Positions 21,012 through 21,201 of a stretch of 57,529 bases of DNA are shown one piece after another. A program made the position numbers and the translations under genes. The DNA lies in assembly GCF_003334355.1 (NCBI RefSeq), contig NZ_QOWP01000025.1; one strand, given 5' to 3'. The number at the start of each line of letters is the position of its first letter. Positions within the stretch are counted from its first letter, which is position 1. Under the pieces are notes generated by a model. That model had not been told where the DNA came from, did no database searches, and saw nothing but the letters and a program-made list of their open reading frames with translations. This DNA is from Escherichia coli (lineage in GTDB: Bacteria; Pseudomonadota; Gammaproteobacteria; Enterobacterales; Enterobacteriaceae).

Positions 21012-21153
21012 TTCAGTACCTCACGACTCGGACAAAATGTCGTTGCGCGCACAGTACAGCGCAACTTATTTTGTTAAAAACATGTAAATGATTTTTTATT
21101 GTGCGCTCAGTATAGGAAGGGTGTTTTCGGCTACAATCAAAACATGCCCGAAT

Positions 21154-21168
21154 GTGCACCAGGTGCAC
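21154..21168. promoter_or_regulatory. Palindrome GTGCACCAGGTGCAC in the mhpR/mhpA divergent region, candidate MhpR operator
   Basis: Perfect 7-bp arms around a central A, in the divergent promoter region of an IclR-type regulator. Confidence 0.55.
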
Positions 21169-21201
21169 CACGTTGTTTTAACTCTAGAAATGTCAATTAA
21201 T

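Follow-up and report, generated by a model that had tools for sequence, protein, structure and literature searches.

The 57,529-nucleotide stretch of Escherichia coli chromosome analysed here, referred to as the window, carries the genes mhpA, mhpR, lacI and lacZ in this order, and a short perfect palindrome lies in the spacer between the first two. Both flanking genes were named via curated NCBIfam equivalog models: the mhpR product scores 343.9 bits against NF007341 (cut-off 269) and the mhpA product 1284.5 bits against NF004827 (cut-off 966). The Pfam domains PF09339 and PF01614 are found on the protein cluster closest to MhpR, and RefSeq annotation of K-12 and REL606 likewise gives the two genes as mhpR and mhpA. 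The spacer (21012-21201) is 190 bp long, as in K-12 MG1655 (368421-368610). A divergent mhpR-mhpA spacer and an intact cognate regulator gene, the context of an MhpR operator, are thus both present. An in-frame upstream ATG at 21088 extends the mhpR reading frame through 21088-21201 to 315 aa, spanning the operator; this long form still stands in many database entries (cluster P0001, 5,956 members), and the current RefSeq start is 21202, giving 277 aa.

Table 1. Features of the mhpA-mhpR spacer and its flanking genes (window coordinates; a dot marks features without a strand)
Feature	Position	Strand	Remarks
mhpA, 3-(3-hydroxyphenyl)propionate hydroxylase, first gene of the regulated operon	19347..21011	-	NF004827; ATG at 21011
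Predicted -10 of Pa, TATACT (plus strand AGTATA)	21109..21114	-	16-nt spacer to the -35; AGTAT conserved
Predicted -35 of Pa, TTGTAG (plus strand CTACAA)	21131..21136	-	CTACAAT conserved at a fixed distance to the operator in Enterobacteriaceae and Pseudomonas
Candidate -10 of Pr, TACAAT	21132..21137	+	overlaps the Pa -35 on the opposite strand
Published 17-bp MhpR operator, imperfect palindrome	21153..21169	-	reads GGTGCACCTGGTGCACA; exact match to PMC8222616, Table 1
Palindrome, core of the MhpR operator	21154..21168	.	unique in the window as GTGCAC-N3-GTGCAC
Left GTGCAC half-site	21154..21159	.	55-57 of 57 per position, operator-anchored set
Right GTGCAC half-site	21163..21168	.	9 bp from the left half-site; 56-57 of 57 per position
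Conserved TTG(T/A)TTT block, mhpR leader	21173..21179	+	4-5 nt after the operator; consensus tTgtttta; E. coli to Pseudomonas (L003-L082)
Weak CRP-like site, TGTCA-N6-ATGCA	21188..21209	.	overlaps the mhpR ATG; centre 21198.5; half-site scan 6/10
mhpR, IclR-family activator, 277 aa	21202..22035	+	NF007341 above cut-off; K-12 b0346; ATG at 21202, stop at 22035

The palindrome GTGCACC-A-GGTGCAC (GTGCACCAGGTGCAC, 15 bp) occupies positions 21154-21168. Its arms of 7 nt are 100% complementary around a single central A, and the perfect symmetry ends at the flanking T at 21153 and C at 21169. The mhpR ATG follows it at 34-48 nt, and the mhpA ATG is 143-157 nt away on the other side; when the sequence was re-read, both the coordinates and the distances given in the initial annotation proved to be as claimed. 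Palindromy by itself is unremarkable: the window holds eight perfect 7-N1-7 palindromes against about 3.5 expected, and for the pattern with at most two mismatches 0.39 occurrences are expected. The arrangement GTGCAC-N3-GTGCAC, on the other hand, occurs a single time in the 57.5 kb of the window. Each GTGCAC hexamer is its own reverse complement, and the site is therefore an inverted repeat and a 9-bp direct repeat at the same time (repeat family D2).

A comparative study of IclR-family motifs (PMC8222616, Table 1) gives GGTGCACCTGGTGCACA for MhpR of E. coli, with Torres et al. 2003 as the source. The plus strand of the window at 21153-21169, TGTGCACCAGGTGCACC, is the exact reverse complement of this sequence, and the spacer differs from those of K-12 and E. 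coli B REL606 by one base (21184), which lies outside the operator. Because of the identity over the 17-mer and the near-identity of the spacer to K-12 and REL606, the palindrome can be equated with the published MhpR operator. We put the probability that it is the activator binding site of MhpR for the mhp (3-hydroxyphenylpropionate) genes, a site already known and mapped in 2003, at about 0.88. Physical binding of MhpR to the operator, enhanced by 3HPP, is attributed by citing papers to Torres 2003 and Manso 2009. The identification has little discovery value, as published work and RegulonDB/EcoCyc have covered the operator, its protein and the 3HPP-dependent activation of mhp since 2003.

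Among E. coli strains, the region is found at 95% identity or more in approximately 4,900 of 5,426 complete genomes, and an exact 41-mer around the operator occurs in 1,495 of the 4,523 matching records. The single differing base of the spacer, C at 21184, is replaced by A in K-12 and REL606 and in all complete E. coli genomes that match: a 60-mer at this position matched 3,920 genomes, none with 100% identity, and a 390-mer reached at best 99.7%. With this change TATAGA becomes TCTAGA, at a point 18 nt before the mhpR ATG and 15 nt past the operator on its right side; it represents either a private SNP or a sequencing error. Variation also touches the edge of the operator itself. The base equivalent to 21169 is A rather than C in the inspected variant genomes MS6192 and 401651, and likewise in Escherichia sp. 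E1V33 and E. whittamii, so that the palindrome is perfect over all 17 bp, TGTGCACCAGGTGCACA; the imperfect form with C is that of K-12, E. coli B and the window strain. In E. coli EC26 (NZ_CP196718.1; locus L085, around positions 134-157, equivalent to 21154-21168), a 9-bp tandem duplication, GTGCACCAG, yields three successive GTGCAC hexamers, presumably through slippage on the direct-repeat aspect of the operator.

Conservation of the site was followed across genera with the help of the regulator. Fifteen orthologues, 63-90% identical to the MhpR of the window, were aligned with it, and the alignment was used to retrieve 80 loci from one-genome-per-species contigs, ranging from Escherichia to Pseudomonas, Marinobacter and Zobellella. 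Of these 80 MhpR-orthologue loci, 77 carry GTGCAC-N3-GTGCAC when one mismatch is allowed, and the 70 exact copies compare with 0.03 expected in 528 kb, which rules out chance. The matches themselves number 80, of which 73 lie 25-60 nt upstream of the mhpR start and four at 60-300 nt, while three are second copies just downstream of mhpR. Thus the proposal of the initial annotation that the palindrome is an IclR-type MhpR operator is borne out twice over, by a 17-mer equal to the published site and by a motif that tracks MhpR orthologues from genus to genus.

The set anchored on the operator comprises 57 sequences, which are diverged, yet phylogenetically non-independent. Their flanking columns are low in information, so the sequences have diverged enough for conservation of the motif to carry meaning. 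Within the motif every hexamer position is kept in 55-57 of the 57 sequences, position 8 is mostly A, and its neighbours vary: position 7 is C in 24 sequences, T in 28 and A in 5, and position 9 is G in 27, A in 26 and T in 4, the two being complementary in 36 of 57. These frequencies show that the unit shared across genera is t-GTGCAC-N3-GTGCAC-a, a 6-N3-6 site with an optional T...A flank rather than a 7-N1-7 palindrome; the 7-1-7 form is confined to E. coli and species close to it. The invariance of the half-sites is paralleled in the protein, where the presumed recognition-helix segment HRTTVRRLL is identical in all 16 aligned MhpR sequences.

Several loci depart from the common arrangement. 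In three Marinobacterium loci a second exact GTGCAC-N3-GTGCAC stands just downstream of mhpR (L055 near 2671, L065 near 3801 and L074 near 3823), followed by a T-tract and the -35-like TTGATG of another gene; these second copies again have activator geometry, which suggests another MhpR-activated promoter there. In Pseudomonas sagittaria, P. linyingensis, Stutzerimonas stutzeri and P. oryzagri (L037, L038, L039 and L042) the operator is found 206-242 nt from mhpR, with a GC-rich insert of about 200 nt after the ancestral ATG-like position. All four are without CTACAAT and AGTATA in the left flank, and in the list of open reading frames of L038 the divergent gene is mhpB-like, not mhpA. GTGCAC-N3-GTGCAC is absent from the approximately 6.8 kb of loci L036, L045 (Vibrio) and L064 (Lampropedia). 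These encode MhpR-like proteins (62-73% identity) without an adjacent mhpA, and their regulators may have a different target or a different site.

The geometry of the spacer points from the operator toward mhpA. CTACAAT (21131-21137) and AGTATA (21109-21114) keep a fixed register to the operator in enterobacteria, Pseudomonas, Azotobacter, Marinobacter and Zobellella, and throughout the 57 anchored sequences AGTAT lies at an offset of 44-47 nt to the start of the operator. Read as the -35 and -10 of the catabolic promoter Pa, the -35 being a provisional assignment, these blocks would put the transcription start at about 21102-21103 and the operator centre (21161) at -58/-59. The conserved spacing to the -35 and -10 would thus give the operator an activator position, close to -58 of Pa. 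The abstract of the 2003 study reportedly locates the MhpR operator at -58 and CRP at -95.5, and the predicted centre matches this -58. The weak CRP-like site across the mhpR start, whose TGTCA is kept in Escherichia, Citrobacter and Kluyvera, is centred 37.5 bp beyond the operator centre (at 21198.5), an offset equal to the gap between -58 and -95.5.

The distance from the operator to the mhpA ATG varies from 89 to 427 nt across genera, whereas that to the promoter is constant: the operator is far from the mhpA start because the mhpA leader measures about 92 nt and is variable in length among genera. A consensus sigma-70 scan of 20900-21320 returned no promoter, which fits activator-dependent promoters with a weak -35 and gives no help in placing the mhpR promoter Pr. 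The supplements of the Cappable-seq and SMRT-Cappable-seq studies hold no entries for mhpR, mhpA or coordinates 3684xx/3685xx. The operator, -35 and -10 appear to form a module facing mhpA that is conserved from Escherichia to Pseudomonas; this is one of three modest refinements offered by the present analysis, the others being the 6-N3-6 recognition unit and the probable location of the operator in the mhpR leader. The E. coli-specific part of the mhpA leader (21038-21065) also contains an inverted repeat, GTTGCGC/GCGCAAC at 21042-21048 and 21059-21065, and the best CRP-like half-site match in the spacer, TGTCG-N6-GCACA (7/10, centre 21045.5). The predicted RNA fold of this leader was no better than that of shuffled sequences (z = -0.61).

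A plausible scheme of activation can be drawn from these elements. An MhpR dimer, or a dimer of dimers, would insert one winged-helix recognition helix into each GTGCAC, the stoichiometry being conjectural and the hexamer centres lying 9 bp apart. The operator would be centred about 58 bp upstream of the Pa start, where the -35 (TTGTAG) is poor, and from this upstream position 3HPP-bound MhpR would activate Pa of mhpABCDFE and help CRP to occupy its weak site 37.5 bp further out. A citing source describes MhpR as the 3HPP-dependent activator of Pa and as essential for CRP binding. We regard the scheme as very probable, and its parts have different origins: sequence identity, the gene identities, conservation and geometry were established here, while binding, 3HPP dependence and the interplay with CRP are taken from the literature. 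The nearness of the operator to mhpR would follow from two divergent promoters that share some 100 bp and from the roughly 92 nt that the mhpA leader takes up. It should be noted that the spacing between the operator and the mhpR start is itself constrained, and that a model built on Pa alone accounts for this spacing only in an indirect way.

The nearness of the palindrome to mhpR had been taken in the initial annotation to suggest autoregulation in addition to activation. This part did not find support: distance to a start codon is the wrong measure, and a PmhpR:lux fusion stayed flat with 3HPP or PP. Put as a dual-function operator, the idea is that mhpR too is under the control of the MhpR site, for instance because bound MhpR stops or delays RNA polymerase that has started at Pr, as in many divergent gene pairs of the IclR family; this appears unlikely, although several observations speak for it. 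The operator does lie 34-48 nt from the mhpR ATG, and across genera 73 of the 80 motif matches have their centre 25-60 nt from the start of mhpR, compared with 89-427 nt to mhpA. In Pseudomonas the Shine-Dalgarno sequence of mhpR follows the operator by about 15 nt, so the mhpR promoter must be at or to the left of the operator; the operator is probably inside the transcribed mhpR leader, at about +10 to +25 if TACAAT (21132-21137) is the -10 of Pr. The IclR-family regulators PobR, PcaU and IclR commonly repress their own genes.

Against a dual function stands the reporter itself, which was constitutive with and without 3HPP or PP in wild-type MG1655, a result that its source calls "in line with previous findings" of Torres 2003. 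The experiment varied effectors in wild-type cells, with the presence or absence of MhpR held constant, and consequently leaves effector-independent autorepression unaddressed. The citing literature ascribes control of mhpR to cAMP-CRP, which also argues against control by MhpR. The conserved spacing, moreover, could equally be a by-product of compact back-to-back promoters and a short mhpR leader. The 2003 abstract is said to describe Pr as independent of MhpR, and a 2011 abstract by Manso reportedly gives Pr as MhpR-independent and CRP-dependent, with a class II CRP site at -40.5. A literature search on mhpR autoregulation yielded no usable report.

Other sources bear on the position of Pr. 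In the Reg-Seq preprint, the -10 signal of mhpRp2 is displaced by about 8-10 nt upstream of its annotated position, to around -20 relative to the annotated start, and an annotated CRP site of this promoter spans -38 to -59, a hint that is compatible with TACAAT as the -10 of Pr; the Reg-Seq supplement contains nothing on mhpR. In the window, a CRP site placed at -40.5 of the candidate Pr would be centred at 21101.5 or 21107.5, and both are weak matches. The annotated site at -38 to -59 would presumably agree with the class II site at -40.5 of the 2011 work.

In its most specific form, the dual-function idea would set the operator within the mhpR leader, roughly from +10 to +25, with the -10 of Pr (TACAAT) sharing bases with the -35 of Pa, so that MhpR, or RNA polymerase recruited to Pa, modulates mhpR. 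This form, too, is unlikely. If true, it could mean, for example, effector-independent autorepression or promoter competition, which reporters varying only the effector would miss, and the conserved 25-60 nt between operator and mhpR (73 of 80 motif matches) would reflect control of mhpR through its leader. The conserved TTG(T/A)TTT block of this leader may act as an A/U-rich enhancer of translation, as an UP-like element or through bending of the DNA. The catabolic promoters have a similar T-tract between their -35 and the operator.

Returning to the palindrome as the MhpR operator, a different protein has also been connected with this spacer. The mhpR/mhpA spacer is an 88% peak in genomic SELEX with the nitrogen regulator NtrC (PMC8743547), and the operator does contain TGCACCA (21155-21161) and GGTGCA (21162-21167), half-sites of the NtrC box TGCACCAnnnTGGTGCA; a palindrome recognised by NtrC would link the mhp genes to nitrogen status. 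The spacing, however, is wrong. The half-sites abut without the N3 and T of the gap, and the 17-bp box TGCACCA-N3-TGGTGCA is not matched, while the SELEX was performed in vitro and its resolution is the whole spacer. Conservation tracks MhpR rather than NtrC: in many genera the motif is found together with MhpR orthologues and with catabolic promoters, which fits recognition by MhpR. We know of no sigma-54 promoter at the mhpR/mhpA spacer. NtrC control through this site thus seems very unlikely, and the peak may reflect in vitro cross-recognition of the operator half-sites.

Still less credible, to the point of being highly improbable, is an RNA element in the mhpR leader, namely a hairpin with a U-rich tract acting as an attenuator or terminator. 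A terminator-like scan flagged 21154-21168 plus CACGTTGTTT, and a T-rich block follows the palindrome in most loci. But the stem would be 6 bp with a loop of 3 nt and a U-tract starting 4-5 nt later, and the putative mhpR leader folds no better than shuffled sequences (z = -0.04). Across the 57 sequences the stem bases are unchanging, without compensatory changes, and the 'loop' is variable; a fixed stem with a variable 'loop' is the signature of protein-DNA recognition. The intrinsic terminator or leader hairpin was therefore rejected as a pattern match only, with z = -0.04 and no covariation.

That the palindrome is a CRP site (TGTGC resembling TGTGA) or functionless and due to chance can practically be dismissed: AATGTG at 21151-21156 does resemble a left CRP half-site, and the window is not short of perfect 7-N1-7 palindromes (8, with 3.5 expected), but the half-site scan rejected CRP, no register over the palindrome reaching 6/10 matches to TGTGA-N6-TCACA, conservation is that of two GTGCAC hexamers rather than of TGTGA-N6-TCACA, and the motif stands in 77 of 80 loci against 0.03 expected.

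The MhpR operator can be set beside those of other IclR-family regulators of aromatic catabolism, PobR, PcaU, PcaR and HmgR, which form the 'GTNCG-N5-6-CGNAC' group (PMC8222616). Common to them are a short palindrome in a divergent spacer between regulator and catabolic genes, a winged-helix IclR-type protein and activation with an aromatic effector. The MhpR operator differs from the group in its half-site, GTGCAC, in its three intervening bases and, in E. coli, in that no external third repeat is evident. Negative autoregulation, a trait of PobR and PcaU, is not known for MhpR. The closest known counterpart is the MhpR operator of E. coli K-12 Pa (Torres, Porras, Garcia, Diaz 2003, J Biol Chem 278:27575): the window strain shows no difference from it within the site and differs by the A-to-C change at 21184 that is private to it and lies 15 nt past the right-hand end of the 17-mer, and the 17 bp and the gene context of the two are identical.
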